A DNA stretch of 62,320 nucleotides, counting the filler, from Basidiobolus ranarum (lineage: Eukaryota), in NCBI GenBank assembly GCA_040143965.1. It is 8 parts of 8 records of this genome, joined end to end, with 100 filler letters (N's around TTAATTAATTAA, not from the genome) between each part and the next. Parts side by side here need not be neighbours in the genome. Positions count along the whole stretch, not along the records: positions 1 to 7,726 come from JASJQH010007950.1; 7 more parts are not named here. One strand, 5' to 3'. Made by a program: the position numbers and the translations under genes. The notes under the pieces are model-generated. The model ran no database searches, had not been told where the DNA came from, and saw only the letters and a program-made list of their open reading frames with translations. Positions 1 to 54,800 of the stretch are shown here, piece by piece. Position 1 is the stretch's first letter; each line of letters opens with the position of its first letter.

Positions 1-1
1 C

Positions 2-559
2 ATTAAGGACGAGGCCTCTGAATCTCAACATACCAGGGATGATGGTGACACAAGCCCACATTCTGACAGCGACGCAAGTCCTTACACCAATAGTGATACC
101 CCAACCCCAAGCCAAGACCCAAGCACGACTGGTCCAGTTACTGACACCACTGGCACACCTACAAACACTACTACCCCTACTAATGGAACCACAAGTGTTG
201 GAACTGGAAAACTTGAGTTTCGTTTCCACAATGGGCAATGTACTGACTGGGCTGATGCTCGATATGCTCAACTCACCGGCCATCATGTCAGCTGGTCTGG
301 GGACGCACGGACCTGGGCGAGCGCGGCAAAGAAAGCCAAAGGGTGGACAGTATCACCAACACCAAAACAGCCGAGCATCATTGTGTTACAACCTGGAGTT
401 CAAGGAACCGGTAGTGCTGGACATGTTGCAGTTGTAGAGAAGATTCTATCACCTACCAGTGTATCCACAAGCAATTACAACTACAACGGTGGGCCTTATA
501 TCAAAAAAACTGTGACATTCAAGACGGGAAATGGGGTTGATTTTATCTGGTACACTTAG
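2..559 (+). CDS. CHAP-domain (cysteine/histidine amidohydrolase) protein, 5'-truncated by the window edge; paralog of 1334..1996
   Basis: Frame +2 is open from base 2 to TAG 557-559. An acidic, Thr/Pro-rich linker leads into GKLEFRFHNGQCTDWADARYAQLTGHH...PSIIVLQPGVQGTGSAGHVAVVE...SNYNYNGGPY...FIWYT*, with catalytic Cys (GQCT) and His (GHVAVVE). The ORF track lists the wrong frame (39..437). Confidence 0.9.
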   Translation: MKDEASESQHTRDDGDTSPHSDSDASPYTNSDTPTPSQDPSTTGPVTDTTGTPTNTTTPTNGTTSVGTGKLEFRFHNGQCTDWADARYAQLTGHHVSWSGDARTWASAAKKAKGWTVSPTPKQPSIIVLQPGVQGTGSAGHVAVVEKILSPTSVSTSNYNYNGGPYIKKTVTFKTGNGVDFIWYT

Positions 560-1333
560 GTCAATGCACAATCAGCAGCAGTTCTTCTGAATTTATTCAA
601 ATCTGTACGAATTTGATTTTTTACCAATTCAAAAACACAAGTAGTTCAATCCGACACTGGCTGTCAATTTTCAACAAGAAACAAATCAGTAAATGATATT
701 CATGTATCACAAATAAATCTCGAATGAAAACCAATATTCTGAAATCTTCAATGTTGCATTAACGCCTGTTTACTAATGAGGGTCCACATTTTAGCGAAAT
801 TAATAATTAAAGTACCGGTGAGATGTGAAACAACCTAGTGGTATTAATACCCTGTTTTAACAAAAAAAGGCTTAGAGCTATCGCAACTAAGTGATATTGC
901 TACCTTACGACCTAATTGGGCAATTCTTGTTTAAAATCAAAATGAAATGGAGGTTGAGTCACGCACTTTTTAGGCCCCATACCCTTGAACTGACTGGAAT
1001 AGAGACAAAGAAAACATGATTGATGTACAAGACTAAAGGATATTAACTCATAAAGGGATGCTGCAGAGAATAACCACAAAATAGGCTTTACCCGATCCTA
1101 ACAGTACGCTTCCACATCTAAATCATTTCGACCTTGAAGTATTAGTAGAGGATTACCAATTCAGCCCCACCTTTTTGAAAATCAGTTTCCGAAATCTAGT
1201 CCTGAAGGTACAAATGCCATTAATTATCAATAGCAAGGGCACTTGTTCATCGGTCTATATAAACTCGAGTAGACTCGGAATATTAATGTTAATCATAAGC
1301 TATCTTTCTGGCAAAGTAGTAACTCTAAGAATC

Positions 1334-1996
1334 ATGTACTCAACCATCCATTTCTGTGCTTTGGCGATCATTCTATCTAGCTTTCTGGTGCAAGCTCTGC
1401 CTGTGCCTGACGGTTATTCTACGGATCAGATTGCGACAAAGATCAAACCTCGTTATTACTATTCTTACGAAAATACTTGGAGCTCCAAATGGGGCGATTA
1501 TAATGGAGATAACACTAACCACCAGCCAAAGAAACCCACATCTAGGCCAAAGAAACCGGTATCTACATCAAAAACCCCCAGTAAAGGTTACAACAAGTCA
1601 CATACTCCGAAAGTTAGCAATAACTCTGGTACTGGTGATATTGGGAAACTCGTGTTTCGTTTCCACAATGGACAATGCACCGATTGGGCTGATGCTCGTT
1701 ACGCTCAGCTTACTGGTCACCATATAGAGTGGTGGGGTGATGCTCGAGTTTGGGCCAGTAAGGCACAAAACACTCCAGGATGGTCGGTATCAACAAAAGC
1801 GATGAAGCCAAGTATAATTGTCTTACAGTCTGGAGTTCAGGGGGCAGGTAGTGCTGGTCATGTTGCTGTGGTTGAAAATATCGAATCGAATGGAGATGTA
1901 TACACAAGTAACTATAACTATAATGGAGGTCCCTACATCAAGAAATTTGCAACGTTTAGACCGGGCAATGGTGTCAGCTTTATTTGGCACAATTGA
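1334..1996 (+). CDS. Secreted CHAP-domain protein (putative peptidoglycan amidase/endopeptidase), intronless
   Basis: ATG 1334 gives a signal peptide (MYSTIHFCALAIILSSFLVQA-LP), a Lys/Pro/Ser linker, then a CHAP domain with GQCTDW and GHVAVVE. TATATAAA lies at ~1256-1263. Confidence 0.9.
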   Translation: MYSTIHFCALAIILSSFLVQALPVPDGYSTDQIATKIKPRYYYSYENTWSSKWGDYNGDNTNHQPKKPTSRPKKPVSTSKTPSKGYNKSHTPKVSNNSGTGDIGKLVFRFHNGQCTDWADARYAQLTGHHIEWWGDARVWASKAQNTPGWSVSTKAMKPSIIVLQSGVQGAGSAGHVAVVENIESNGDVYTSNYNYNGGPYIKKFATFRPGNGVSFIWHN

Positions 1997-2441
1997 CGCT
2001 GATCCAAGGTCACTTTTACTCTATCCATTTCAGACCCTTAAGACAAGCACAACATTCTTTCGATTTTGAAGAGTATCGTATTGTTGGTCTCTATTACTCA
2101 ATTGAAATAAATAACATGTTAAAAATCCATATTTAAACACCTTCTAGAGAACTTCATAATACAGGAGTAGAGAATGGATGAGTCTGCTTTGATCCATGTT
2201 TGTTAAATTGTATATGGGGTAGTGTGAGAAAATGAAACGTGACGGTGGATAGCTGGATCCTCGAATCCCAATAATGCGCTAACCCGTAACACATCAGCAA
2301 TCCTCAATCTGTATATGATGAAATTAATACGGGAAATTAGTCATTCTAAGTTACACAATATAGTTCACATTATTTTTGATTTTTACCTCGTATAGTGATG
2401 CCGTTACTGCACAGCCATTCTCTTACAAACATTAAGGAAAA

Positions 2442-4270
2442 TCAACTGAAGCCAGGTTGGAATGCGGGAAAGTTTTGGTTGGAAAACATATTTGCCACGC
2501 CTAACAAACCGATTGCCAGTCTCGGCGAAGTGTCTTTTGGTACAATCGCATTTTTCCTTGCTACCAGAACGTATTTTAGTTTTCTACAAAGAAACGATCC
2601 TTTCTTCTTGACATAGATCTTTTTACCGTTTTGTGAGGTTACATCTACTCGTTGTTCCAGATTGATATATATATAAGTTCTTCAGTCACCAATCATCATG
2701 ATGAGTTTTGACTTGCTTTATGGAATGGCCTAAACACCGGGCGGATAAAATTGGCATGTTATGTTTTTGTAAGTTATTTCGGTAAGATGGTATAAACGTG
2801 TTTCATAAGTAACACTTTACCTTCTCCATCTACTATACACTGTCTGTCAGATTTATACCTTTCGGCAGAATCGTTTATTTTGAATTTCTAGAAACTTTGC
2901 CTTCCTCGCTTATCTTTAGAATGATAAAAATCTCGAAAGGCCTGACGATGTTGATGTTGATTGTTACACACAATATGCAATTCATTGCAGTTTGAGATTT
3001 TTTCCAATGGTATTTTAGACATTTCGTTTTCGATTTTCTGGATTTTTTTGCCAGCTACTGTACCATTTTTTCACAAGCCTCCTCATCTTTCTATTCTCAC
3101 ACCCTACATCTATATCCGCTGCTGCGATTTTACAGCTAGGTGACGTGTTTAAGAAATCACGGCTATTTTTGTTTTACCACTGTTTTCACCCGGCTCCTTT
3201 TTATTGTATTTCTGAATAATATCTTCAGTCGTTTTATGGTTATTGTCACGATCATTTAGAACTCGAAATCTATTGTAAAGTTCTAAATGAAATTTGAAAT
3301 GATCCAAGGTGAAGCCAATTGTATTGGTCTTCGTGACAACTCCGTTACCTGTCGCTGAAAAAAAATCATTTTTGCTCATTGTGGTCCTGTCTATATATCC
3401 TCGGTTTGTGTGACTCCATGACTTGAGGTTGCAAGGTTGTATCGAGTGGAAACATCTTTCTCAAAGGAAAGCGATTCTTCTTTCTAAGCTAAAACGTCAG
3501 CTTCGTCATTATCACTACGATCTATAGTCAAATTCTTGTCGAATAACCTGTGTACGTAAATAATACAAGGGTAATGAAATAAAATAAGTTTGTCTACTTC
3601 GTTCAGATCATCTTTCGTTGCTTTCGTCTTATACTCAGCGTGAATAATATTCCTCGTTCGACTCCGATTGAACATGTGGATGTTGCTTGAATTTTAATCG
3701 TCCTCTTGCTTTTGTTTTGCTTTGCTTGCCTTCATCTCTAGCAGTCTTCAGTAAGTTCTCTCTCTTGTGGGAGCTGGATTCCCTGATAGTATATTTCCTA
3801 CTATAACTAGAATAGTCAAACGAGCAGTGATTTGTGAATAACTCTATACCACAATTACTTATCATAGCAATGCTTACTTTCGAGAAGTTGAGTAGAATCA
3901 CGAACATGAGGTTGAGAAAGTCCTAAAACTAGTCTAAGAGCGTTATCACCATTCGAAATATCCTGTGTAACAGCATGAAAATACTGAAAGAATCGATTTT
4001 TCAGCAGTCAATAAAATTCGGAGTTTGCCCCTACATACTAATTTGGCAAAGCATCTGTGATAAATGAGTTTTACCTCGTATCACTTTGATTATAAACTTC
4101 GCCAACCTCAGGGCTGAAGTCTCTTTACTCCACATCTTTAAAACTAAATGAATTTCGCATTGGGTAGAAGATTCATAGGCAGTATTGTCATTTGGCGAGG
4201 ATACATGAGCGAAACTCCTGCGTCTAATATTCAAGCGTAATAGATGTTTGACTCTGATTGAAGGCTCCAA
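2442..4270 (-). pseudogene. Decayed Fanzor (eukaryotic TnpB-like RuvC nuclease), Mucoromycota Fanzor1-like
   Basis: Minus-strand fragments occur in the expected order: FSATGNGVVTKTNTIGFTLDHFKFHLELYNRF (RuvC-I region, ~3265-3360), KIAAADIDVGC, RQAFRDFYHSK, KLIMMIGD (~2685-2710), GSFLC..KYVLVARKNAIVPKDTSPRLAIGLLG..FPAFQP (Zn-finger/RuvC-III region). Many stops, frameshifts and an internal deletion. The 5' limit is approximate, and the family call is recalled, not searched. Confidence 0.65.
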
Positions 4271-5019
4271 ATTGACTGAACATTATGATATATATAATTA
4301 CATTTGGATCGGGTCAAGTGCCAATGGAGATTGACATTGAAGCTAGTCAATTTAGAGCAAACCTTGATATACATTCTACATGAATATCAAACAATCCAGA
4401 GACCAGGGTGGATTGAAACAATACTAGGGCTTTCAGTTTCTTCATCTACAACTAGTTAGGCCTTCAGGCTATTCGTGACTTCGACATTGTTTCTTTTGTA
4501 CCTCTTTTGCCTGCAAAATTATTCCAGCGCAAGCCAGAACTATTGTAGATGAACAGACTATTGAGATAAGCAGTTGGCATGTAACAAGAGAATGAGTTCA
4601 CACTCCACTAATCACAAACACCGAGATGACCCTAAGCCAAAAACGTAGGTGAACAAAGTAATCAACAAGCAGACTACCTAGCCGTACTATCCCTTCAATC
4701 ATTGTTTTACTCCCTAGCTTGAGTTTTCGAATCAGGCTATTAAATCGGTTGCCTTCCCATCAAATTACCTTGTTACTTGGTTCTAAAGTCAAACTAGAAC
4801 TACTTGATAGTATTATATTGATGACCGATGCGCAAATAAGTGGTGGAGCTTATTTAAAATATCTTTTATTTATACAAAGATGAAATTGTTGAAAATGGGG
4901 GAGAGAGTTGATGTTGTATCGGTAGAAGTGTGGTTGTTTTATTATAGCGACCAAAAGATGAAATTAACTCCCGCGAATGCATCCTTTCTAATTTCAACTC
5001 AATAAAGTTTGCCCGAAAC

Positions 5020-6840
5020 TTAGTGCTTCTTCTTCTTTCCCTCAAATCCTGGTCTAGATTTCTAGTGAATTGATTGCATGTTTAGATTTCTGAATATAAA
5101 AGAAGCAAGTATATCAAATACTAACCTTCTTGTCTTTGCCCTTGTCTTTACCCTTGGTATCTTTACCCTTACCCTTGCCCTTATTCTTCTTGGCGTCAAT
5201 TCTAGCTTTGAGATTCTCGTTTCTCTTCTTTTGCTTATTCGCAATAGAATCAGCAATTTGTGTCTTACGTTCAGTCCTACAATGGCACATTAGAATGGAT
5301 AGCACAAAGACCAAATAAAATAAGAGTCGCAACATACCATTCCTTATTGCTCTTCTTCTTCTTAACCTCATCACGCTTGATGGTCTTCTTGAGAAGCTTG
5401 GGGTCATCCTTAAGTTTAACACCGGCAGACATCTGGAGAGCCTTCTTCCATTGTTCATTTTCTATAATCTTTTCGGCCTATTAAGATGAAGAAAACAGTG
5501 GTTAATATAGGCAATTTCATACTTATAATTATTGCGTGTTCTCATTACCTTCTCCTTGTCTGTGGCCTTCAACTTATCCAGCTTTTCTTTCTTGGCTTCG
5601 ACCTGGTGAATTCAATTAATATTTTGATGAGTTAAATACCGGCTACTAATAATGCATACCTGTTTCAAAGCAATAGCGGCAGAGACGGGTCCCTTCTTCT
5701 TCTTGGCAGGGCCATCAAATTCGAATTTACTGAATGCAATATCACCATCCATGTTGATGGCATTGGAGGAGGTACCCACTGAAGTAGACTACAATAAAAA
5801 ATCACACATTAAAATAAGTTTCAGAATTTGAAAAGTCCAGGAACACTAACTTTAGTATTCGATTCTGAGATGATTTCCTCAGTACCGGTCTTCATCTTCT
5901 TCTGTTCTTGTTTGCGCTTCTCCTTCTTTTCACTCTTTCTCTTCTTTCTACTTTCTAAAATACCATCTCGTGTCTCACCATTGCTGGAAGGAACCTTTCT
6001 ATTGGCACGGAGTTCAGCGATACGGTTTTGAAGACGAGCTTTGAGATCTTCAATAGAGGAGCTGGGAAGAGGTTGGACAATTTCTATAAAGGAAATCCGG
6101 TTAGATTTTGGAGAATAGGGACATGAGTAGGAATAAGCTGTGTACCTTCGGTTTCCTCATCACTTGATTCCTGTTGAGCTGAATCAACCTCAATTTTAGA
6201 GTCTTCATCTACGGACATGGCGTCCTCATCGAGTTCGGCCTCGGATTCTGAGTCTTCGGATTCATCCTCAGCAACATTTGCTTTTTCAGCTTGTATTTCA
6301 AGGATAGACTTATGGTTTTCAGGATCGAGCTAAAATGAAAAAATATTATATTAATAACTAGTACTAAAAACACCACTCAGCAATGAAATAGTAGGAGCTA
6401 ATGAGCGGTGTCACAAAATATATGTAGGGTAATCAGGCTCTCATCGAGGAATTTACCTTGGCTTTCTTGGCCTTTTTGGTTCTCTCTTTAATTTCTTGTC
6501 TTGGGGCACGTTTGTTTTTGTTGTGCTGATATTTTGTGTTCTGGAAAAAAGAAAATGCGCATGTTTAGTAAAGGTTCATCAATCAAAAGCTGTTGGCATG
6601 GATTAGGAAATCCCCTCATTAATTTGAAAGTACATACCTCCTGAGAATCTTCCGAGATGTAATACTTGGAAGGTATCAGACTTAATAGAGAGTCAAAAGC
6701 TTGACTGTATTCTTGAAGGCGATCCTATAAAGCAAATAAGGATTAAGACCATAGCTCCTTGAGTGGGAAGAATACATATAGGTATATATGCTTCTATAGT
6801 GTCGCGAAGTTACCTCAAGTCCGGAAAGTGAATATGCCAT
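5020..6840 (-). CDS. RRP14: RRP14/SURF6 nucleolar ribosome-biogenesis protein, multi-exon
   Basis: ATG 6840 (MAYSLSGLE) is followed by several GT-AG introns. The exons include AKKAKLDPENHK, an acidic tract, IAFSKFEF, KLKDDPKLLKKT, KQKKRNENLKAR and the SURF6 C-terminal signature KSRPGFEGKKKKH* (TAA 5020-5022). Confidence 0.88.
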
Positions 6841-7726
6841 AGTTAACGGTATAGAAGAACTCAAGTAAAACAAAAGCACTACTAAAGTTTCTCTTTGTAA
6901 AATCAACCAGTCCGAGAAAAAAAAACTATTGATTCATAGATTTCTATTATGGGTACATATTAATCTTCTACATATCAACTATATCATATCAATTTTTACA
7001 AAGAAAAAAAACTCAAACTATTTTTTTTTCCAGAAAAATATGAGTGATGAGACTGGCTTTTTAGGAAAAAAAATTTCGATCAACGAGAGAGATTCTGGAA
7101 TATCTTAATATAGAAAACTCAGCAGAATCACTTGGATATTTGGGAAGTTTTCGTGACAAGGTAACATCCATTCCTGAACAAATCCTTTCATTTGGCTGAC
7201 AGAAAGCCAACAGGAAGTTCGGGCAGCTCCTTGTCAATAGCACCTCTGTTATCATGTTGTATTCGATATTCATTGACTGAAGATGTAATACTTACTCAGC
7301 ACTGTTATTGGCAGACGATGTTTCTTCAACATCGAAATTCATTGCATTGATCACCTGTTTTTCTCAACCTTTGCACGTAGGTGTTGGCGATCAGTTGGGT
7401 AATTGTGCGAATATACCATTTACGAAATATGGCTGTCGTGTCACGAACTTCTCCAGTTTGATTGGTATTAAGTAGTGACTTTGTTTTTACACTGTTCCCA
7501 TTATGTGCTCACCCACTATATTGAAAACTGAGGCATCTGAGAAAAAGAAAAATAAATCTTTACCCAATTGTAGCATTGTTGTTGGTGGATTCAAGGCATA
7601 ATACACTTCAAATATTATGGGATGGATTTACGGTAGATCCTACAAGTCCAAACTTTATGAAATCCCTTGACCTTTACTGTGATAAAACCGGACCCAACTA
7701 TAATGCATATATGAATGAGGCTATGG

Positions 7727-7826
7727 NNNNNNNNNNNNNNNNNNNNNNNNNNNNNNNNNNNNNNNNNNNNTTAATTAATTAANNNNNNNNNNNNNNNNNN
7801 NNNNNNNNNNNNNNNNNNNNNNNNNN
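7727..7826. other. Artificial concatenation linker (N44-TTAATTAATTAA-N44)
   Basis: The 100-nt spacer has stops in all six frames. Identical copies at 15543-15642, 23356-23455, 31160-31259, 38961-39060, 46754-46853 and 54542-54641; genes are cut at these points. Confidence 0.98.
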
Positions 7827-10480: not shown

Positions 10481-11590
10481 CTAGACTTCAGGTTGATCAT
10501 GAGTTGCACAATGTATGCCTCCGCCACCTGTTGCGATATAGTCGATGTTCAAGGGAACAATCTGTCGTCCAGGGAACACTCCTCGAAGAATACCCTGGGC
10601 CGCCCGATCCGCTTCTACATCCCCAAATTCTGGCATGATGATGGCTCCATTGGCGATGTAAAAATTAGCATAGGATGCCAAAAATGAGTCTCCGAACACC
10701 TCTAGGGACACTTCATCAGTCTCTCCTTCGGCAGGCATCCCTCTGATTTTTTCATAATCAGGTTCTGGTAGTTGTATGATCTTCAGTCGGTTCCCCTTTG
10801 CATCAGTAGCTTGCGTCAAGACTTGCATAGCTTGAGTATATTGCTGGGCCCAGATAGCAGAGTCTGGGTCATTCTTTTTAGCTGGCCCTGGACGACTAAC
10901 TACCACAACGCCTGGTGCAACAAATCGAGCCAAGGTATCCACATGCGAGTCTGTGATATCCTTTCCTTTGACCCCCTTGAGCCAAATGATCTTCTGAACC
11001 CCAAGCTCAGACTTAAGAGTAGCCTCAATCTCCTTCCGACTCTTACCAGGATTCCGGTTGTTATTCACGATACTACTCTCAGTCAGTAGTAGAGTTCCCT
11101 GGCCATCAGTCTCGATGGCTCCTCCTTCAGCAATCAGACTAGATTGGAACCTAGGAAGTTTGTAGTGAGCCAGATAGCTGCGGGATACACTTCCATCATT
11201 CTTGCGGTACTTGAGAGGAATTTTCTTCCCCCAGCCATTGAAGTTGTAATCGACCCCAACTGTATCTTTTCCTTTCGTAAGAAACAAAGGTATAGTGTCC
11301 CGAGTCCAAAAATCATCGACTGGAATTGGGATCACCTCGATCTTACTTCCCAATACTTTTTTAGCATGGTGGACTTGATCGGGTGAGACTAAGACTTGGA
11401 CTGGTTCAAAGCGAGAAATGGCTTGGGCCAGTTGAGCAATATTTCTTTGAGTGCCAGTGAGTAGATTTCGCCATATGTATCTCGAAGCAGGCCAAGCCAT
11501 GATGGTACGCTTGTGAGACTCCCATTCAGGGGCAATTCGGTAGCCTTCAGGGATCTTGGATAGAGACTTGTTTAAGCTTGGATGATTCAT
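10481..11590 (-). CDS. aguA: Agmatine deiminase / PPAD-family (AguA-like) enzyme, intronless, bacterial-type
   Basis: 369 aa. Motifs: PEWESHKRTIMAWP, DDFWTRD, DYNFNGWG, EGGAIETDGQGTLL, TDSHVD, ASYANFY, and C-terminal GGGGIHCATHDQP with the catalytic Cys. Confidence 0.93.
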   Translation of the reverse strand: MNHPSLNKSLSKIPEGYRIAPEWESHKRTIMAWPASRYIWRNLLTGTQRNIAQLAQAISRFEPVQVLVSPDQVHHAKKVLGSKIEVIPIPVDDFWTRDTIPLFLTKGKDTVGVDYNFNGWGKKIPLKYRKNDGSVSRSYLAHYKLPRFQSSLIAEGGAIETDGQGTLLLTESSIVNNNRNPGKSRKEIEATLKSELGVQKIIWLKGVKGKDITDSHVDTLARFVAPGVVVVSRPGPAKKNDPDSAIWAQQYTQAMQVLTQATDAKGNRLKIIQLPEPDYEKIRGMPAEGETDEVSLEVFGDSFLASYANFYIANGAIIMPEFGDVEADRAAQGILRGVFPGRQIVPLNIDYIATGGGGIHCATHDQPEV

Positions 11591-12376
11591 TCTATAGTTT
11601 GTAAAGTAGTTACAAGGTGATGAGATATGGTATATATAAGGATCAGTGAAAATTCTGTCCTGGGATTCTGTCCTTGCGGTTTATCCACTGCCAAGACTCC
11701 AATTTGTCAACTGGCCAACGAATGGTCTAATCGCATTTCCACCCCTTTGCACAAATCCCACGGTTGGTATAGATATAAGGTTTGGTGAGGTTTTGTTACC
11801 AGTTTGACAGTTTATTGGATACTGGTGACGCAGCCAAGCACGTGCCACCATACATGCAGAATCTATCTTCCATTATTGGATGCATTGTTTGTGGGTGGAT
11901 TATGGACGAATGGATGATTGAAATACTGGCTGAATGATCGGTAAAAGAAATCTCATTAACAGGTATGCATTGCCAATTAGCTATATCTCCTCCAATTAAA
12001 CTATTAACTGATGTATGGTAAAGCGTATGGTAAAGCATAGGCATATTGCTAAAATTAACGGGTATACTAAGTTCCCTTGCTCAAGAAAGTGTTTACTCCC
12101 ATTACTAGAAAATATAATACATACAACTTGAACAATACAAATATCAATGGGAAAGAAAATTCTGACCTCAAATATCTTGTTTCTCTGATCAGAACAATGA
12201 GCAGCTTGCAATTTTTATTTTCGATACTAGAAAGCAGGATAATTGAATGGTGCGAGTTTCTTTTTTTATGTGAAGTATCAGCCCGATCTGAGCATTGAAA
12301 TGGAGAGTAACACTGCTAAAGAGAGAAGTTACAGAATCCAGGTCCAATTAGAGAATAATCTTTTACCTCAGCCTGA

Positions 12377-14656: not shown

Positions 14657-15642
14657 ACAGATTAACATATAATAAACCATAACTCATATTGAGCTATCTA
14701 AACATATTTACTAAACTGATCACTTTTATTTCTCAATATTGCACTTATTGGCGCAAAGTGATTTGATTGATTGGGCAAAATGGGCTAGGGTTGTGGTGAT
14801 TTTGGTAAGAGTGCATTTTTCCAGCATAATCATATTTTAGGCCAATGTAGAGGGTATCTTAGGGGGGAGAAAGTCACCAACAGGTGAAATCTTTATTTCA
14901 AACAAAACTAAGAAGCCATAACTACTTTTGTAGTTTCTTAACTAATGTATGGAGATCAGGAGTATTGGTATGAATGTTGCAAAGTAGAAAAGTTAAGACA
15001 GTAGAGTCTAAGATACTATTGAGTGGAGTGGAAGGGAGTAACAAAGGTAAAAATGGTTTGTCAACAATGGGAATTAGTGGAATGAGACTAGGATTAACAT
15101 AAAGCATAAAGGGAGTATGTTTCTGAAGATATTGCTGTCAAAGGTCCACCAAGTATTCCTTGTAGGCAAGGGAAGGCTTCTCAGCTTGTTCTATAAAGGA
15201 ACCAAATTTTCTGACTTCATGATCTCCTAGCAGTATTCTCCAGCAAGAAGAACAATCAGTCAAGTGGGAGCTTCTCCAGGACTTAATCAGAGGGTTCTGA
15301 CTTTTGCAAATCCTGATGAACAGTCTAGTCTTAAGGTAGAGAATTCTAAGACTATATGTAAGTAAACCAAAAGCCCCAAGAATGGCATGTCTGTAAGGGC
15401 ACTCAGGCAGATGAGAAACTAGGGTTAGGGGGATGAAAAGCACCAGATGGTGTGGACTTTATTTAGCTTAAATACTAATCTAAACAAAGTGACAATCAAG
15501 ACATCAATCTTTTAAGATATTGTGACAATGCTGGATCATATCNNNNNNNNNNNNNNNNNNNNNNNNNNNNNNNNNNNNNNNNNNNNTTAATTAATTAANN
15601 NNNNNNNNNNNNNNNNNNNNNNNNNNNNNNNNNNNNNNNNNN

Positions 15643-23355: not shown

Positions 23356-24170
23356 NNNNNNNNNNNNNNNNNNNNNNNNNNNNNNNNNNNNNNNNNNNNT
23401 TAATTAATTAANNNNNNNNNNNNNNNNNNNNNNNNNNNNNNNNNNNNNNNNNNNNTAACTAGGGAATCTGGGCATTCTTAAATGATGGTGTATGTAAAGC
23501 TCGGCAATAAACAGTTGCCAAAGGCCTGTATCATCACCATGAATGCACTTTCATCCCCATCAATAGAATATACCAATGGGGAATGCGCATTATCATAGCA
23601 CATACTCATCCTATCTCTCAGTTGATGAATGTTGCATTCACAATATCTGGACTCAAGCCGAAAACAACCCCTACTTCTGGAGCCCTCGCACCCTCATTGT
23701 TTATCTATGGCCAGAGTGTTGGCTGTGCTTGACATAATGTCCGTCTTGGTTAGCTCTCTATCTATCTAACTTGTGGTCAGTTGGTATTGTCTCTTCCTTT
23801 TTTGGAAAGAGCTGCGTAGTATAGGGATATGAGACTGACGTATTACAAAGACGTTCTGAATAGTAATATGGCAATTCATCTTGAAACTTCAAAAAGAATG
23901 GGATACTGCAGTTAAAATTATTACATTGTGAAAATAAAAAAATCAAAGTGATCGCTTCGAGTAGTGCTTAAGTGTGTGTGATCTTCGACCCCTTAAGAGC
24001 ATCATCATTGCTGTGTTATTCTAATAGTTTTCCTTCTCTAAAGAAAACTATTGGCATTCGCAAGGATCTTTTATCCAGTTATCTGCGAAGCCATCTATCC
24101 ATAGAACTTCCAACTTCTTTTCTATTGTTTGCTTTTTCTCTATTTTTGTAATTTGCTAAACACATAAGTT

Positions 24171-27100
24171 ATGAATTCAAAGCCCAATCCCAACAAAACT
24201 ACACCTCAGTTTACTTACGCTCAATTAGCTCAGAAAGCCAAAAACTCTACTTCTTCTGCATCTCCTCAACCGCAATTGGCTAAACCTTCTCAGAGCAAAA
24301 CTGAAAAACCCCCCTCTCAACCTAAAAAACCTCAACCACCTACTGCATCTAATGGCAATGGTTCTCAACCTGAGCCCATACCTAATGCTTGGGTAAAGAA
24401 GCCGGTCATTTCAGCTTCTAAAGGTTCTGGTGTTCAATTTCCTACTCGCCAACCCTCTACCGGCGGTGCTCCATCCATTCAATTTGGTTCAATCAACCAG
24501 ACCACAACTGATAATGACTCTCCTTCAGATCCCATTGTTTCTGGTAAAGACTCGTTGAAAGAGGCCCCAACGCAACAACAAGAGCAGCCTGCTGTTGGAA
24601 TGAAGTCTACCAAGCCTGTATTTGGATCTTCCAATACCAAGAACTCTGAAGGCTCCAAAGCTTTTAAGCCTCAGCCTGAGGCTATCCCTCAAAATATTAC
24701 TATTCCAGCTAACATTGAGCCTAAACCGTTTCAGCAATCCCCTCGTCCACATCCAATACTTTCACCCAATGCTTCCTATTCTCCTCACCCGCTTCAACCT
24801 CAGGAATTTTCCCCTCGACAAGGACACATGCCACATCCTTCTAGTCAACCTCATATTCGTCCACATCATTACCCCAATTCTCCTATGTCAGGACCTATAG
24901 TTCCTGGTTCACCCTCTATGACTGGCAGTCCTATCATGCCTCCCGCTTTCTCTCCTCAGCAAAGACCAAGAGACCAACCTATGCATAGTCCAATCCAACC
25001 CTCTATGTCACCTACTATGGCTCAGGTAAAGTATTCATTCCAACCATTCATCTCCAGGATATAAATATATATGGTTTATATGGAATTCTTATTGACTGAT
25101 TCTACCTTCATTCTAGTATCCTTACCAATATCCTGGCTATCAACCTCAATATGATCCTAACAATCAACAAGGTTTCTATCGTCCAGTATACACTGTACCA
25201 TATCCAGTACCTCCCCATATTCCCGTTATGCAACCGGGTGTTCAACCTCGTATGAATACTGGAGCTCCTACATTCGTTCCACCTCAATCTAATAGAGCCA
25301 TTAAAATCGTGAATCCAAAGACAGGTGGTGTTGTGGATCTTAAAGGTTCACCTCCAGTTGGAAATAAAGAATTACCAGTCACTTCGACATCCATTCCTAA
25401 TAATGAGGAAAAGAATGGTAAAGAAGAGAAAATCTCTGAACCAAAAAAAGATTTCACCTTACCCAAGAAAAACCCCTCTAAAGCTATTCCAATCATTAAT
25501 CCTGCTATGAAAGAATCAGAAGATTCAATTAATACTTCCAACATTTCTGAGACTCTTACCACTCCAAAATCTGATGAGGTGAAGACTCCCGAAATTGGTG
25601 ATAAGCCTATCCCCACTGTGGAGGAAGATCAAGTTAAATCTACATCACCTATAAACGAAATATCTGATGATTCCGTCAAAGATGAAAAAAAAATGGACGA
25701 CGCTTTACCTGAAGATAATCTAGCTTCTAAAACTTCTAAAGTATCTCAGTTACTTGATTCTCAAGCGTCCAAGGTGGAAGAGAAAACGATTACCGAAGAT
25801 ACTGTGAAAGAGGATATTGTAGTACCTAGTACTATTGAGGAAAGCGAGAAGGACGATGCTGTAGTTCCTAATGTTATCGAAGAAACCAAAGCGGATGATG
25901 TTGTAGTCCCTAATGTTACTGAGGAAACCCAGAAAGATGATGTTGCTGAGAAAAAAGATGATGTCACTGATACAAAGATTTCCAACAATGAATCTACTAC
26001 ACCTCAAGCTAATATTGTTGAAGATACCAAAGAAGAATCATCAAAAGAGCCTAGTAAGAGTGTTTCTTCTAACATTGAAGAACAAGCCAAACCTTCTGAA
26101 AACGGAAGCGACTCAAAACCCACCGATACTAGTAATTCGGTCCCTGCTAGTGTTCTTAACCCAGATCAACTCAATCAAGTCCCTTATCCTCCCAACATCA
26201 ATGCACCTAAGAGTATAGCCAATTCTGGTACCCTTAAGTACGATACATCTTTCTTGCTTCAATTCAAAGATGTTTGTAAAGATAGACCTAATAATATGCC
26301 AACTTTGGAGTCTCTTGGTATTGAAGAGAACTCTCGTGATGATAAGAGATCTTCAAGCAGTGCTGGTAGACGCGGGGGACGAGGTGGTAGCAGCGGACCC
26401 AGAGGCGCTAATACCTTCCAAGGTGGCGATATGGGCTCATTTAAGCATACTCCTAAGACTAGTGAAGAGAGATTTGCTGCTTCTCAAGGCGCAGGAGGCC
26501 GTGGTTTTAATCGTGGCTCTATGGGTGGTAGATCTGCTAGTGGAAGCAATAATATGCCTAACATGGGTAGTCGTGAGGGTCGTGGATCTCGTTCTGGACG
26601 TCATAAGGGTAAGGGCGATCGCCAACAACAAGGAGGACCTACTATTCCTCTTGACGAAGTTGCTCCTCTTGCATTCTCTAAAGAACGCTGGGTTCCCAAT
26701 GCCAATGTCGCTTCTTCAACTGATGAGGAAAACAACAAGAAGGAGATTCTTTGTCGTAAGGTTAAAGGTCTTTTGAATAAGTTAACTCTTGAAAAATTCG
26801 AATCTATCTCCGATAAAATCATCGACTTCGCTAACCAAGCTACAGAAGAAAAGAACGGATCTACATTGCAAACTATAATTCAACTTGTCTTCGAAAAAGC
26901 CACTGATGAGCCTAACTTCATTATGGTGTATGCCTCCCTTTGCAGAAAGATGATGGACAAGATCAGCCCTGATGTTATGGACGAAAGCATCAGAGGTAAA
27001 GACAATAAACCCGTTTCTGGTGGTGCTTTATTCCGCAAATATCTTCTCAGTAGATGCCAAGAAGAATTCGAAAAGGGATGGAAAGTTGACCTGGCTGATG

Positions 27101-28578
27101 GCGCATCTTTAGATAATCCTAATGCCTTGTTGACCGATGAATATTATGTAGCCGCAAAGGCTAAACGTAGAGGTCTTGGGTTGATGGCATTTATCGGTGA
27201 ACTTTTCAAATTACAAATGCTTACAGAGCGTATTATGCACGAATGCATCAAGCGACTTTTAAGTAATGTTCAAACTCCAGAGGAAGAGGAGACAGAAAGT
27301 CTCTGTAAGTTGATGAGTACTGTTGGTAAACAACTCGACCGTAAGGAAGCGAAGAACTACATGGATGCTTACTTCCAACGTATGAAGGAGATGTCAGTCA
27401 ACAAAAATTTAAATAGTAGAATTAGATTTATGATTCTGGACGTCATCGATTTACGTTCTAACAAATGGATCCCACGTCGTGAGGTTGCAGGACCTAAGAC
27501 TATCTCCCAAATTCATCAGGATGCACAAAAGCAAAAAGAGGAAACTGCAGAGATGTTGAAGAAAACTGCCAGCTCTGGTGGTAGATTGCCCCACATGAAT
27601 CAACAACTTTCACGTTCTAATTCGGGACGTCGCGACAGACGTGGGCCTCCTGGCCAAGGCCCAGATGGTTGGAATACCGTTGGTAATGCCCCTTCATCCC
27701 GAAAAACTGGAGACTTGACTGCGTTTGGCAATTTGGCCCGTAGTAAGAGCGGTGCCAATGTTAGTCTTGGCCCTGGTGGAGGCGTTTTCGGTGCTCTTGG
27801 TGGTGGAAGTAAAGGATGGAAAACGGTAGATGGCAAACCCAAAGAAGAGCCTAAACCTTCTTCTGGTAATATGTTCAGCGCTTTGATGTCCTCTGAAAGC
27901 CCCAAGAAGGATGACAAATCCTTTGAACGTAAGCCTCTGAATCTGCGCCCTAGAAGTGTTCTGGAAACTCCACCTGAGCCTGTTAAACTCACCAAAGAAG
28001 AAGTCGAGTCGAAGATCAAAGCGATGGTGGAAGAGTATCTCTCCGTTAAGGATGTTCCTGAAGTTACAACGTGTATCAAAGAACTTGATAGCTCGGAATC
28101 CCACTCCATGGTTGTTTCCGAGTTCATCAACGAAGCTATTGACAAGAAAAAGGCTGATATTGATGCTGTGATCAAACTGTTCAAGATATTATCTTCTGAA
28201 GATGTGATCAATCGTGAGTCATTTGTTGCAGGTATACTTGAAGTCATGGAGTACTTGGAAGACATAGCTATTGATGTACCTCAAGCATATGAACACTTGG
28301 CTCTTATGATGTCCGGAGCCCCTATTGAATTGGAGGATCTTCCCAAGATTCTCGAGACTCTTTTATCCGGTTCTGGTTCCAATCCACCAGCAAACAAAGT
28401 TTTGGGCAACTACCTAAAGGCACTTTCATCAGATATTGGGCCGGAAAAGCTCACCGAGAAGTTCCAAAAATCTGGTTTGGAATGGTCCCAAGTATTACCT
28501 AAACATCAACATTCCGAAGATAAAATCGAGGAATTTATGAAGAAATACGATCTGGAGATTGTACCAAAGTCCGATTAA
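24171..28578 (+). CDS. TIF4631: Translation initiation factor eIF4G (2 exons, ~1438 aa)
   Basis: Exon 24171-25025, intron 25026-25116, exon 25117-28578 (in frame). eIF4E-binding motif YDTSFLL, MIF4G domain (VKGLLNKLTLEKF...FIGELFKL...SRIRFMILDVIDLR) and an MA3 domain. Confidence 0.95.
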
Positions 28579-31159: not shown

Positions 31160-31259
31160 NNNNNNNNNNNNNNNNNNNNNNNNNNNNNNNNNNNNNNNNN
31201 NNNTTAATTAATTAANNNNNNNNNNNNNNNNNNNNNNNNNNNNNNNNNNNNNNNNNNNN

Positions 31260-38960: not shown

Positions 38961-39060
38961 NNNNNNNNNNNNNNNNNNNNNNNNNNNNNNNNNNNNNNNN
39001 NNNNTTAATTAATTAANNNNNNNNNNNNNNNNNNNNNNNNNNNNNNNNNNNNNNNNNNNN

Positions 39061-46753: not shown

Positions 46754-46853
46754 NNNNNNNNNNNNNNNNNNNNNNNNNNNNNNNNNNNNNNNNNNNNTTA
46801 ATTAATTAANNNNNNNNNNNNNNNNNNNNNNNNNNNNNNNNNNNNNNNNNNNN

Positions 46854-48251: not shown

Positions 48252-49565
48252 TTAAATTACTATTTTTTCTAAGGAATTGACCAAGTTTTGCAGATCACTC
48301 TTGATGTTGTGTGCATATCTTACAACTCTATCTCGAGTGTCCAAAACTTCAACGGTCTCAGTGTATGGATTGTAACGAACATCAAATGGTCGGTTTAGAC
48401 CACGAGCAAATTCTCGCACCTTATCTTTAGCATCCTTGAAGCTCTCAGCGACAAAGTAAACTGGTTGATATTCTGTAATGGGATACTTCTGTACTGCGGC
48501 TTTGGAGGGATCAAATGGTATCTTTGTGGGCTTATCTGACAAACAGTATTCCAACTCTCCAAATGACGACAGTAAACCAGCACCGAACGCCTTAACTTCA
48601 TCACCTTGTCTACAAAGACCGAACTCTACTGTGAACCAATAAATGGTGGAAAGTTTTTCAATATCTTCATCACTAGCACCAAGAGAGGCGAGACCAATTT
48701 CTTGTGAGAAATCGGCAAAATCTTGATTTGCGAACAAAGGAACATGTCCCAAGAGCTCATGACAACAGTCTGGCTCAGGTGTGTATAATGGCTTTGAGTG
48801 ATGACGGATGTATTGTGTAGAATGGAATACCCGGAAAGCTAGCCCGTTTAAGAAATCTCTTGATGTCAGTAAACCCATGACTGGGCGAAGTGAGAAGCCA
48901 GTACAATCTTTCAAGAAGCGGGAGATGTCATCGATCTGTGGGATGTTATCCTCGCGATATCCGCAGTTTTCAATCAACAATGGGAACACATATTGATGCT
49001 CACGACAGGCATGAGATGGATACATGGCTGTGAGCTGGCGAAATACTGCCCCCCATGTGGCAATTTCCTGATCGGTGTACTTGATTCTAGGCAATGGCTG
49101 GCCATGTTGGTAAGTACGAGCGATACGAGTAATCTCAGCACGACGTGCACGGTAAACAGGGTCGTGGGCACCCGGATGGTCGGAATTCAACTCTTCGCCC
49201 ATCTCCAATACCTTTTCGGCGAAGCTATCCAAATCGGACTTCTTTCTTGGGAACCAAGGAACACTGTTACCAGCTGCGTTAGATGCACCGGTGCTGACTA
49301 CTTTAACGTTGCCAGATACACCTTCAAGAGATTTTACAACGGTTTGTACTGTCTCCAAATTATCGGTGAAGAAGTCGACGAAGAAATCGTAATCCCAACC
49401 ACTAGTCTTACTAGGACGTGACTCGATACGAGTCAAGGAAACGTTCAAAGCATTGATAGCTTTGAGGGCTTCATCGAGAACACCAACTCTGTCGTTAACT
49501 GAGAATAGTAAGGTGATACGCATGGAAGCTCCGTTGGTGGTGGCTTTTGGTGCAGTTTTATCCAT
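48252..49565 (-). CDS. PAH: Phenylalanine-4-hydroxylase (biopterin-dependent, N-terminal ACT domain), intronless
   Basis: ACT domain with LTRIESRPS; VPWFPR, DHPGAHDPVYRARR, FHSTQYIRH, PEPDCCHELLGHVPL (Fe ligands), YWFTVEFGL, GAGLLSSFGE. Confidence 0.96.
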   Translation of the reverse strand: MDKTAPKATTNGASMRITLLFSVNDRVGVLDEALKAINALNVSLTRIESRPSKTSGWDYDFFVDFFTDNLETVQTVVKSLEGVSGNVKVVSTGASNAAGNSVPWFPRKKSDLDSFAEKVLEMGEELNSDHPGAHDPVYRARRAEITRIARTYQHGQPLPRIKYTDQEIATWGAVFRQLTAMYPSHACREHQYVFPLLIENCGYREDNIPQIDDISRFLKDCTGFSLRPVMGLLTSRDFLNGLAFRVFHSTQYIRHHSKPLYTPEPDCCHELLGHVPLFANQDFADFSQEIGLASLGASDEDIEKLSTIYWFTVEFGLCRQGDEVKAFGAGLLSSFGELEYCLSDKPTKIPFDPSKAAVQKYPITEYQPVYFVAESFKDAKDKVREFARGLNRPFDVRYNPYTETVEVLDTRDRVVRYAHNIKSDLQNLVNSLEKIVI

Positions 49566-50992
49566 CGTGAAGAATAAGTTTTTTGAGAGAGGGGGGATTG
49601 AGATTGTGTCAACTAGAACAGTAAGGTTGATTGCCTGACAAAAAATAAATTGGAGGCTGGTGCCTGTTTATAAGAAGATTGCCATGAATCATGTGGACGT
49701 GAGAAGTTGAAACAACAGTAGGGTGATATTTTTGAAGGGTTGGTGTTTGCTCAGCATTAGAATGTCAAATGTATATAAATGTATTGACGAATGAGAATTT
49801 CTGATCCATGTTGCTGAGGATTGATCGTTGACAAGATCGCACATGATCTATGGATAATATAGCTCGCTCAAGGATGGACTGCGGCTCATTCTCTTTTAAA
49901 TCCATAATGATGGGAAAATAATCCTAGATCGTGTGAATTTTAACTCTTCATTATGTCGTGGTAAAGAGTTGGTGAAAAGGTACCCCTGCTATGAGTTGTG
50001 TGGATTGTGGGAGAGTTCCCACAAGTCAAATACAGTACTTCCTATAGAAAGTGTTCGAAAAGAAAAATCCCTATTGTGCGCATAGTTTATCTTCAAGCAC
50101 AGTTTGGTGGACAACGGGTTGATACTGGATTTTCTCATTTGGTTCGTTCACAAGGAGCTTCATTTTTATTACAATACAAGTGAACGTTGTTGTTTCAGTT
50201 TCATCTGATCTATCAAGGGCTAAAAAGCTCCACTGCTTGGAGCCGATTCGGTAAACATTCGGCTTGTCGCACAAGGTGAATACCGGTTTTTATTTGGTGA
50301 TAGACTCAAAGAGGAATACTTAGATGTCATGAAATGAGATGAAAAAAGAATCCAAGTCACTAAAATGAATACACCTTCCTTAATCTGTCCCTCTTCCGTC
50401 AGGGAACTCATTGCTCAAAAAAAGGAATTCACGTGCTCACTTTCTCAGGGTCAGATATTTTCTGGAGGAATTACAAGTAATTCGAGCTAAACTCTAATCT
50501 CTAACCCAGATTAACAGTTTTTGCTGGCCAATAGCAGGGGTTGTTAGGAATTTAATCTAGTACAAATATTCACCTAAATAACACGATATTATCTTCATTA
50601 TCGAAACATCTTCCTACATATAAACCAGGGTTCTGTTATTGTCAGCTGAGGATTTATCTGCCTGAATGGATGATTATTTTCTCAGACATGACTCCTTTCC
50701 ACAATACAATCTGCATTGAGCATCTCAGAGAGCCAAGGTTACAATGGCAAAAATGGCCGGAATGTTACAGGCAAAAAACCCAATCACTTCAAAGCTAGCG
50801 GGGTGATATATTCGTGAGTATTTTAGAAGATATGTACATTTACAATTGTAATTAGACTGAGAATATGTCAAGCAGGAGAAAACCACATAAAGATGTGTTG
50901 TTTTGGATAGTTATGGTGGTATAGAATTTGAAGTTTTAATTTATTAGCGTAATTTGTTGACATCAAATGGAAATAATAGATCTCTGCTGATA

Positions 50993-51848: not shown

Positions 51849-54800
51849 ATTTGGTATCTTTAGTTTTTTGCGGCGAGTGAGAAGGCTAACGCTCCCTTAT
51901 ATGCTCATTATTTTCTCGAACACTCTTCCCTTACTGTTTCAAATCTGGTTCTATCCAAAATCTACCTTGTTTAATTTCTTCACGTCATTCATTACCGATG
52001 AATACCTGATTTAGCAATTTTTATACAAAATGCAGTATACACGCGAAGCGATTGATGAGAATTTGATTGAAGGTTGTGCTTTCTCGGTATTGTAGCGACG
52101 TCAGATTACATTGACTCCTTAAACAAGTATTGCCATCAAAAAACACATTATCGCGCCAATGAATATTCGTCACCCAATTTCATTTATCAGTTTATGGAAG
52201 AACATTACCACCCATTACGCTTGAACCAGATATCCTTCAGTTAAACATTGCAGTCCGATGCTGGAGAATGAAAGTAGCAGCAATGCTTAAGAATGTTGAT
52301 TCAGACTAGCCATCGTAGTCTATTTAGAAATGAATACGAACAGGCAGTAAATGTCTACTTCACCACTAACCAAACGACGTGTATTTATGTAGGTTTAGTT
52401 TAAGAAGTTGCTCATCTAACAATCACCATTGGATTTCAGATCAGGTGCAGCTCTAATGGATTCAGACGTTGTGATTCATATCTGTTGATCAGCGTTCGAT
52501 ATGAAGACTGGACTTGAGGTCACATATCAATATAGACCATTATTTTCCGGTTGAGCCTTGAAATAGTTCGTTGACCCTGCACCTATCCTAAGACCTTACC
52601 TTTGGGCCATCTTGGCGTATTCTAAACCGATCGTGGATGGCAATCTAGCACTTTGCTTAACAAGTACGGTCACTGTAATCCAAATGATGCTTCTGTTATC
52701 AATCCATCATGTGATTTGATTCGTAGAGAGCTGTTGATAGAAAGGACACTAATGCTTTAAGGATATCAAATGTCCATTGTATGCTCAGCATCTCGGTGAC
52801 ATCCATCAGCAGGATTGTACTAACGATTTCTAAAAATATCTACCACTTATAAGTGATCGGAATTGGTTTCTGGCGTTGAGTAAAAATGAATCTATGCTGC
52901 CAACATGGTGAGTGGGGAACCTTTAAATCCGGTAGTGGTTCTTGGGTGACTGGTCGTTCAAGTTCAGATGGAGAATTCGATCAAATAAGGTGTATGTGTG
53001 TGAAGTGATGGTACCTGACTAATCAGATTAACCCCACACTCTTCTAATCTTACAATTTGATCTCTGGACATCAACTCTCAGATAGCATCTTAGCCTTGGA
53101 CATTGACATGCCAAGTCTAGTGAATCTGATTGGCGTATCTTTGTTAATCTTCCAACACGATAAAAAGTTTAATATCTGTGAGGAATATTACATCATAAAT
53201 CATCGGATTTGGAACGGAGTTCATCATGGTCGTTCAATCTGTCAGAAATGCTCAGTCACCAGAGTGACTGAATTATGCAAGCCATCTTATTTCTTTCTTA
53301 TTGGCTCGATCGGGGTAAGAATAAATTAAAAACCAACCAGTCGATTTACGTGATTTTTAATTCACAGCTCAAGCCACGAGAATCTTCGAGCACTGCCGGG
53401 TTCACTGTTGGTAGTTGATTGAAAGTGTATATGATGTTCTTGATGGGGATATTCTTCATAATTTAGTTCACTGCTTTCCTTATGGTATTAATATATGCTA
53501 AGAACATCAAATTTACTTTACAGAATTCACTTCCGACTAGTTTGGAATTTTCCACACACAACTAGCACCATCAGTGCTAAGTAGTGATGCACATTTCTTC
53601 GGTTCGTTAATATGTGGGCGATGATGAGATTTATTATCTTATTTTCTTGGCAAACCTTGACTAGCTCTGTCCATTCATGGCCTCCAAGAAATCGTACTGT
53701 ATCGTATTCTGTGGTATTTCGAACTTTTGGCCAATTTTGGAAGTGGCTTAGGTCAATCCCTGCTCAATCTTTTTTTCGAAAAGCACATGTTTGATTCTTA
53801 GTGGTAGAGAGGAAAACTCTACCATTTAGAAGTTACTTCGTCAAATGATACGGTAGGATTTTAGTTCAGGTTCAAGAGGTAGCCGAGTTTACAGGTCCAG
53901 TCATACTTCAAACACGGGTTACAAATGAAGGTAATGAGGCTCCATATATATCTTCTTTTTCAATCCAAAGTATTCTTCTCCTATAGGAGAGTGACCATGT
54001 GTACCGATGAATTTGACTATACGTTCACTCGGATTGGTAAAAGATAGTGAAAGGATAAAAAATGCAAGGTGAGAGTTGCACTATGGAAGATTCTCCTAAA
54101 TGGACACGTAGGATGTCAGCATAAACGCCAACTGGTGAGAGGTAAGCTATTTCTCCAACTATAAAGCTGGCCTTTTTCGTAGATTGAATTCGTCGTTTCT
54201 TCAACTTCATTCAACTTCTTCTCTAACTTGAACATTGCATTTTATTATTCCAAACCTATTGTCCATTGATCTCAATGTTGCTGAATAAAACTACCATATG
54301 GTATTTAGGGATACTTTCCATCACTTTGCTAGTCCCAGTAAACGCTCAATCTACTGTGAATGATGGTTTTACTTTTGCTACCAACGAACCTAGTCAAGGA
54401 GGAGGTGGTGGTGGAGATGGACAAAATAACGGAAATAAACTTTGGATTAATTATATTACCAATAGTAATTATAGCTGGAACATTAAATCTTAGTTCAATT
54501 ATTGAATCACAAAAAGCTATTTGGTTCTTATTTCCTTTATTNNNNNNNNNNNNNNNNNNNNNNNNNNNNNNNNNNNNNNNNNNNNTTAATTAATTAANNN
54601 NNNNNNNNNNNNNNNNNNNNNNNNNNNNNNNNNNNNNNNNNGGCCGATTATATTCAAATGGGATTGGGCGAGTTTCTCAGAAAGGATTATGCTACCAAGT
54701 ACCATATATGGATTGGAAAGGGTAACTTACCTTATGAGCAAATATTTGCCACAGATAATCATGAGAGAATTTCGAATGGATAAACTACTTTGAGGGTGGT

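Follow-up and report, generated by a model that had tools for sequence, protein, structure and literature searches.

A decayed relic of a Mucorales protein family, with probable TnpB/Fanzor kinship, in the genome of Basidiobolus ranarum

The stretch of DNA analysed here (the window) is 62,320 nucleotides long, filler included, and joins eight parts of eight records of the genome of Basidiobolus ranarum (GCA_040143965.1), the first of which (positions 1 to 7,726) comes from JASJQH010007950.1. Within this first part, the minus strand carries the remains of a gene. Its translation displays four open stretches with recognisable peptides (3149-3460, 3015-3173, 2888-3070 and 2442-2681) and the reading frames alternate, the first and third stretches sharing a frame that differs from that of the second and fourth. 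An initial annotation, made from the sequence alone, had described this locus as an inactive copy of a Fanzor/TnpB-like RNA-guided endonuclease extending from 2442 to 4270. The five peptide strings on which it relied are all found in the minus-strand translation: FSATGNG...YNRF, KIAAADIDVGC, AFRDFYHSK, IMMIGD-TGA-RTYIY (in a single frame at 2679-2702) and GKKIYVKKKGSFLC...PKDTSPRLAIGLLG, the latter in the open stretch 2442-2681; the two codons that it singled out do read GGT (Gly) and GAC (Asp). The relic is homologous to a family of uncharacterized Mucorales proteins and its lesions are numerous (Table 1). Taken together, the locus is very likely a non-functional pseudogene fragment, the decayed C-terminal part of a gene from this multi-copy family, the intact members of which would be relatives of TnpB and Fanzor.

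The homology to the Mucorales family was established by several searches. When the stretch 3149-3460 was compared by phmmer with 1.84 billion representative proteins, 35 of them matched at E ≤ 1e-3 and two at E ≤ 1e-10, the best matches having E-values of 2.6e-18 (P0001, 56% identity) and 3.6e-15. Among these 35, P0006 is repetitive and unrelated, and 26 carry the motif F[SC][GSA]T[DNG][NS]G. A profile built from 18 family relatives (A1, 646 positions) was then compared with the six-frame translation of the window, where its matches are confined to the relic: profile positions 364-520 correspond to 3406-2888 (E = 9.3e-31) and positions 422-628 to 3176-2439 (E = 2.4e-12), for an overall profile span of 364-628. 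Similarly, all 14 family proteins used as tblastn queries land between 3460 and 2412. The similarity to the members of this FSGTDNG family (P0001-P0054) is thus significant and collinear across the conserved blocks, and the phmmer and profile E-values indicate real homology. Open frames arising by chance in AT-rich intergenic sequence could have been suspected, since the relic region has 36% G+C and its fragments lack Pfam or PDB matches, but such E-values against 1.84 billion proteins and against the family profile refute this explanation, which is practically untenable. The searches that remained silent include Pfam with the four fragments and neighbouring frames and phmmer against the PDB with the fragments, both of which returned only chance matches (for the PDB, e.g., allophycocyanin, E = 0.009-1.3), as well as the ESM Atlas with the fragment labelled D, for which there was no usable match. 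A word-index search of fragment A against longer proteins also returned nothing, but this reflects a sensitivity limit, because the family was subsequently recovered by the exhaustive search. No second copy of the relic was found within the window.

Table 1. Minus-strand features of the relic and of the remainder of the initially annotated span (positions count along the window)
Feature	Coordinates	Strand	Evidence
Whole recognisable relic: C-terminal ~45% of a Mucorales gene, probably Fanzor-like, in two alternating frames	2442..3460	-	family profile and tblastn
Segment 1: open frame with FSATGNGVVTKTNTIGFTLDHFKFHLELYNRF, the most conserved block of the family	3179..3460	-	phmmer, best match P0001
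FSATGNG, in the position of the near-invariant FSGTDNG of the family, a candidate RuvC-I; GGT stands at the Asp codon (3347-3349)	3341..3361	-	codons
Frameshift 1, between EPGENS and RDFLNTSP	3162..3178	-	three-frame reading against unbroken P0002 and P0004
Segment 2: RDFLNTSPSCKIAAADIDVGCENRKMRRLVKK	3072..3161	-	profile alignment and translation
DIDVG, second conserved Asp motif, alternative RuvC-I candidate, intact	3102..3116	-	codons; hhalign
Frameshift 2, within a six-A run	3066..3071	-	relatives unbroken: KK-N-T..GK..IE
Segment 3: NGTVAGKKIQKIENEMSKIPLEK...AFRDFYHSK	2915..3065	-	profile alignment
Frameshift 3, immediately past FYHSK; the next frame reads ARKAKFLEIQNKRFCRKV, matching ...EIQ.KKF.D.L of the family	2910..2914	-	three-frame reading and profile alignment
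Segment 4: C-terminal part, six in-frame stops past ARKAKF	2445..2909	-	translation, stop count and profile alignment
TGA at the junction of a ~52-codon in-frame loss, between IGD and RTYIY	2682..2684	-	comparison with P0039, P0041 and P0036 in alignment A2
GAC, retained Asp of the family RD (candidate RuvC-III); the window reads KD	2532..2534	-	codons; family RD aligns to TnpB RD/AD
TGA closing the last open frame	2442..2444	-	translation
Remainder of the initially annotated span, not shown as part of the relic	3461..4270	-	no family or Pfam similarity

The named members of the family come from Mucor hiemalis, Helicostylum pulchrum and Rhizopus microsporus and all of them are annotated as "hypothetical" or "unnamed" proteins. 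The majority of the gene models end shortly past the FSGTDNG...YNRY block. Searches of viral contigs and of metagenome contigs yielded no DNA of these relatives. The full-length members, which range from 713 to 1129 residues (P0039, 713; P0041, 741; P0036, 1129), are mutually distant. The family alignment A2 (P0041 numbering) contains several invariant blocks: F421-S-G-T-D425-N-G; G591-D-R-G followed by G.G..IKG.R.YGG.W; V-C-x-T-x-E627-x-x-T-S-Q-T-C634-V-Y-C637-F-S; and C665...N. C670 and R682-D683, followed by ..SA.AI.L.G, are present in the three complete proteins. Across the family alignments, F421, T424 and G427 are invariant and D425 is conserved in at least 90% of the sequences, and a second acidic motif, [AS][AGS]-D-[IVM]-D-[VILF]-G, is found family-wide about 55 residues downstream of FSGTDNG. 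The conserved residues of the full-length members are therefore arranged in the order D...E-x6-CxxC...Cx4C...RD. The motif strings that the initial annotation gave for fungal Fanzor1 proteins match this family almost letter for letter. Upstream of FSGTDNG, P0041 has a pair of long helices of about 100 residues (267-381), the sole part of the protein that AlphaFold2 modelled with high confidence (per-residue confidence score, pLDDT, 80-93).

Compared with its relatives, segment 1 of the relic spans from just upstream of FSGTDNG to KYN..EPG, and segment 4 reads, in order, ARKAKFLEIQNKRF... with its stops, LIMMIGD, the TGA, and RTYIYINLEQ...GSFLCRKLKYV...PKDTSPRLAIGLLG...FPAFQ. The lesions are distributed throughout. 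The Asp of FSGTDNG has been replaced by Gly, the second Cys of the second pair by Lys and the Arg of the RD by Lys. The six in-frame stops of segment 4 fall inside conserved sequence. The in-frame deletion that had been proposed between IGD and RTYIY is borne out by P0039 and P0041, which have about 52 residues at this place (RG.G.G..IKG...TNE.KTSQTCVYCFS..HP), including the Glu, the TSQTC and the first CxxC. The six-A run at frameshift 2 is a typical site of single-base indels or, alternatively, of sequencing errors. Since the fragments are collinear with intact Mucorales proteins, the description of the locus as an inactive copy of a family holds. The span that had been assigned to it does not: the N-terminal half of the profile (positions 1-363) has no match upstream of about 3460 in either the tblastn or the family profile searches, and the read-through translations of 3459-5103 in all six frames contain no Pfam family. 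The gene was thus either 5'-truncated or has decayed beyond recognition on that side, and its extension to 4270 is unsupported.

The alternation of frames could also be explained if the locus were a live gene with introns that encoded a shortened, domesticated derivative of the family. The window is indeed eukaryotic and contains long unbroken open reading frames (ORFs), among them those of eIF4G, Sec63 and a biopterin-dependent hydroxylase; each of the four long fragments is open; and introns are possible in Fanzor genes according to the excerpted text of Jiang et al. (PMC10530073). Nevertheless, the three frame changes each take place within 5-17 nucleotides, in places where the relatives are continuous. 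These zones are too short for introns, which are ruled out as their cause, and the changes are indels. The six stops in the conserved last segment, the loss of the catalytic Glu and of the zinc block and the lack of an N-terminal half also contradict a functional gene, making this explanation very improbable. The window copy is dead.

The relationship of the intact proteins to TnpB and Fanzor is a separate question. According to the portion of Bao & Jurka (PMC3627910) available here, the motif D-X(125,275)-[TS][TS]-X-X-C4 zinc finger-X(5,50)-RD defines TnpB and Fanzor and is found only in them. Allowing the second Cys pair to be C.{2,4}C, this motif is present in six of the seven family members tested (P0041, P0039, P0036 and three cluster members), three of which are independent, and in none of 6000 shuffled sequences. 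The sole exception is P0035, whose C-terminal gene model is divergent. The window copy itself lacks the motif because its [TS][TS]xxCxxC block has been deleted. Two Fanzor fingerprints are given in the excerpt of Yoon et al. (2023, PMC10711439): at RuvC-I a DPG, and a glutamate placed six residues ahead of the zinc finger. The second one is present in P0041 (E627-x6-C634), and likewise in P0039 and P0036, in a block that is deleted in the window copy. The same Glu-x6-CxxC arrangement occurs in none of the 32 ordinary TnpBs of a comparison set, and no real case of a TnpB with this alternative Glu was found among 42 TnpB frames from 325 genomes. Fanzors also carry Pro or Gly instead of the canonical RuvC-II Glu, as stated in the available part of Jiang et al. 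(PMC10530073), and the Gly of the family's MMIGD fits the site of the Glu in the TnpB xxEDL, a correspondence made by reading and not computed.

Profile comparisons point in the same direction. The family was aligned by hhalign with TnpB alignments built from relatives of the E. coli InsQ and from PF07282 loci, with P-values of 0.0025, 0.0034, 0.00048, 0.0013, 0.00068 and 0.0013. All runs brought TSQTCxxC, the second Cys pair and RD..A..I opposite their TnpB counterparts, and the score of 36.3 may be compared with a maximum of 24.4 for 150 column permutations and with 14.2 for the reversed alignment. In the ESM Atlas, the neighbours of P0041 400-741 at 0.97 are clusters with DUF8286 (Mucoromycota) and with PF07282 Cas12f1-like_TNB (giant viruses and eukaryotes), which is a lead and not a test. 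Judging from these sequence features, the family is quite probably related to TnpB and Fanzor, and it is not filed here as a strict member of Fanzor1. Its members would then be nucleases, guided by RNA and of transposon origin.

Several observations weigh against this kinship. The hhalign probabilities are only 10-32%. PF07282, PF01385 and the NCBIfam guided_TnpB do not match P0036, P0039 or P0041 at E ≤ 10, PHROGs contains no TnpB/Fanzor match for the family, and neither phmmer nor the profile recovers a TnpB match or, at E ≤ 10, a Fanzor match from the PDB, which includes Fanzor1 structures. As a control, a TnpB profile was compared with the PDB; it recovered TnpB, Cas12f and other Cas12 chains, as well as the mimivirus TnpB-like L79, and no Fanzor1 chain among the 60 of its 79 matches that were listed. 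Since the TnpB profile does not reveal Fanzor1 among these listed matches either, the silence of HMMER-level searches towards Fanzor1 is weak evidence. The other fingerprint of Yoon et al., the DPG at RuvC-I, is replaced by GTDNG in the family, or by D-[VFLI]-G in the alternative motif. Their spacing DxG-x(120,160)-E does not apply from D425, which is 201 residues away from E627 (145 from D482), and neither does their CxxC-x(12,18)-CxxC-x(4,8)-D, as there are 27 residues between the Cys pairs, the second pair is Cx4C and 12 residues separate it from the Asp. The AlphaFold2 models are too poor to judge (pLDDT of 52.5 for P0041 with 18 sequences and of 47.7 for P0043, a C-terminal fragment of 137 residues, with seven) and Foldseek searches with them returned nothing below E = 0.1, only coiled-coil or random matches that were discarded. 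Around the relic itself, neither terminal inverted repeats (TIRs) nor target site duplications (TSDs) were found, only short imperfect pairs of inverted or direct repeats; the 3' flank (2230-2500), folded as RNA, does not surpass shuffled sequences (z = +0.59); and Rfam has no match in the whole window.

These points could be accommodated if the relic did belong to the Mucorales family but the family were no relative of TnpB/Fanzor, the [TS][TS]xxCxxC...CxxxxC...RD being a convergent zinc-ribbon motif in some other protein, possibly also a transposon one. In addition to the lack of HMMER-level matches, the low hhalign probabilities, the absent DPG and the unusual spacings, this possibility would be congruent with the long coiled-coil N-terminal half, which is atypical of TnpB, and with the zinc block: VKGAFLCRNPHC (P0043 34-73) can be aligned with the zinc domain in the regulatory chain of aspartate carbamoyltransferase (PDB 1pg5_B, E = 0.94), which weakly hints at a rubredoxin-like zinc knuckle formed by the second Cys pair. 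Yet, convergence would have to account for an ordered set of Asp, Gly at the site of the canonical Glu, Glu-x6-CxxC, second Cys pair and RD..SA..I whose collinearity with TnpB recurs in all hhalign runs, for a score above all 150 permutations and for the absence of the full motif from the shuffled sequences. Moreover, the Atlas neighbours carry PF07282 and, in the excerpt of PMC3627910, Fanzor1 families are reported from Mucor, Rhizopus and Phycomyces. An origin outside TnpB/Fanzor thus seems unlikely, and the Fanzor/TnpB-like identity advanced by the initial annotation is probable rather than proven: the motif, the alternative Glu and the hhalign P-values (4.8e-4 to 3.4e-3) speak for it, whereas domain libraries, PDB and the DPG do not.

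The position of the RuvC-I Asp within the family is ambiguous. The initial annotation placed it in FSGTDNG, which is one of two candidates, the other being the motif that reads DIDVG, intact, in the window. FSGTDNG is the best-conserved block of the family, which counts in its favor. So does its context, as a GxDxG-[IV] followed by short hydrophobic stretches and then by a helix resembles the strand-strand-strand-helix start of the TnpB RuvC. The hhalign comparisons set the TnpB GxDxG on FSGTDNG when a narrow TnpB profile was used, and also in a region-restricted run (P = 0.44), but with a diverse TnpB profile and low mact it falls on DIDVG. A TnpB RuvC-I sub-profile was uninformative, with scores of at most 0.2 bits. 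The distance from the second acidic motif to the alternative Glu, 145 residues in P0041, fits both the 120-160 of Yoon et al. and the 158 of SpuFz1. Since this spacing is better than the 201 residues from D425, DIDVG may be the true RuvC-I, in which case FSGTDNG would be part of a preceding domain. Given that DIDVG is intact in the window, this question affects only one detail, namely whether the RuvC-I Asp of the relic has been mutated; the copy is dead whichever the Asp.

In the most likely scenario, the intact members would be RuvC endonucleases of the TnpB/Fanzor superfamily, guided by RNA and carried by transposons. The Asp of FSGTDNG or, less probably, that of DIDVG would provide RuvC-I; a Gly-Asp (IGDRG) would occupy the site of the canonical RuvC-II Glu; six residues ahead of the CxxC...Cx4C zinc ribbon there would be an alternative Glu; and the RD would be RuvC-III. 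A Fanzor1-type element, or an already 5'-truncated copy of it, would most likely have been inserted and would have decayed neutrally afterwards. The relic is located in a gap of about 3 kb between a CHAP-domain ORF ending at 1996 and ORFs beyond 5100.

Other features of the window are recorded here for completeness. Two adjacent ORFs on the plus strand (2-559 and 1085-1996; Pfam E-values of 2e-14 and 5e-13) are 70% identical over 353 nucleotides; they encode CHAP, a bacterial-type cell-wall peptidase/amidase domain that has been tandemly duplicated in this eukaryotic window. Three long ORFs are intron-free: a Porphyromonas-type peptidyl-arginine (agmatine) deiminase on the minus strand (10481-11680, E = 1e-106), eIF4G on the plus strand (25117-28578, a single frame of 1153 residues) and, again on the minus strand, a biopterin-dependent aromatic amino-acid hydroxylase that includes an ACT domain (48252-49667, E = 2e-171). 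Fourteen 44-N runs, paired and recurring about every 7.8 kb (7727-7826, 15543-15642, 23356-23455, 31160-31259, 38961-39060, 46754-46853 and 54542-54641), belong to the filler between the joined parts and are not assembly gaps; none is close to the relic.

The relic itself is of little import, as it is one more dead fragment of a transposon gene in an intergenic region. Its discovery illustrates that reading the raw sequence can find a Fanzor-like fossil overlooked by searches of Pfam and the PDB. It also draws attention to Mucorales "hypothetical proteins" that appear to contain the catalytic constellation of TnpB/Fanzor in full and that are left unlabelled by current domain libraries. The family has unusual features: DNG instead of DPG, the Cx4C, about 200 residues separating RuvC-I from the alternative Glu, lengths of up to 1129 residues and a long coiled coil. 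Tentatively, it could be a divergent and never-annotated Mucorales clade of Fanzor1-like proteins, possibly missing from the published Fanzor catalogues, of which the window would preserve one fossil; the doubts about this proposal outweigh what favors it. No literature was found on DUF8286/PF26935, and the available portions of the literature on Fanzor in Mucor and Mucorales do not describe the family by name. Should the intact members prove to be active nucleases guided by RNA, the candidates for compact genome editing would gain a divergent fungal group, and more would be learned about how Fanzor1 diversified in early-diverging fungi.

The relic and its family can be compared with several known systems. 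Like the Chlamydomonas CRe-1, 2 and 3 elements, as described in the excerpt of Bao & Jurka (2013), the relic has retained a 3' part, lost the 5' part and suffered an internal deletion; unlike them, since they are recent and Helitron2-borne with recognisable ends and TSDs, it is heavily mutated and has no recognisable ends. The same excerpt (PMC3627910) reports Fanzor1 families from Mucorales, with 10 in Mucor circinelloides, four in Rhizopus oryzae and three in Phycomyces blakesleeanus, some of them in MuDR-like non-autonomous elements with 9-bp TSDs. By comparison of descriptions, the present family shares with those the host order and the long motif, and those are multi-copy and often degenerate; the window copy differs from them in that no TIRs or TSDs are recognisable around it.

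With the prokaryotic TnpBs, such as the E. coli IS609 InsQ and the ISDra2 TnpB, the family has in common a TSQxCxxC zinc ribbon and an RD..A..I RuvC-III helix in collinear positions. In contrast, TnpB has about 400 residues and its RuvC-II Glu is in an xxEDL about 50 residues ahead of the zinc finger, whereas the family has a Gly there, a Glu six residues ahead of the finger and 713-1129 residues. The last comparison is with Fanzor1, known from SpuFz1 of Spizellomyces punctatus, PpFz1 of Parasitella parasitica and GtFz1 and from the structures PDB 8GKH and the 9CE*/9CF* entries (PMC11423790). Unlike Fanzor1, the family shows DNG or D-V/F/L-G where DPG would be expected, a second Cys pair of the Cx4C form, an upstream coiled coil of about 100 residues and no sequence or profile match to the PDB Fanzor chains, and the window copy is dead; D425 is also further from the Glu in P0041 than the corresponding Asp is in SpuFz1 (201 vs 158 residues). 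The spacing from this Glu to the RuvC-III Asp is 56 residues in P0041 and 65 in SpuFz1 (D383/E541/D606). Like Fanzor1, the family consists of large fungal proteins with the order Asp...Glu-x6-CxxC...Cys pair...RD, a Gly in the place of the canonical RuvC-II Glu and a long helical insertion past the first Asp.

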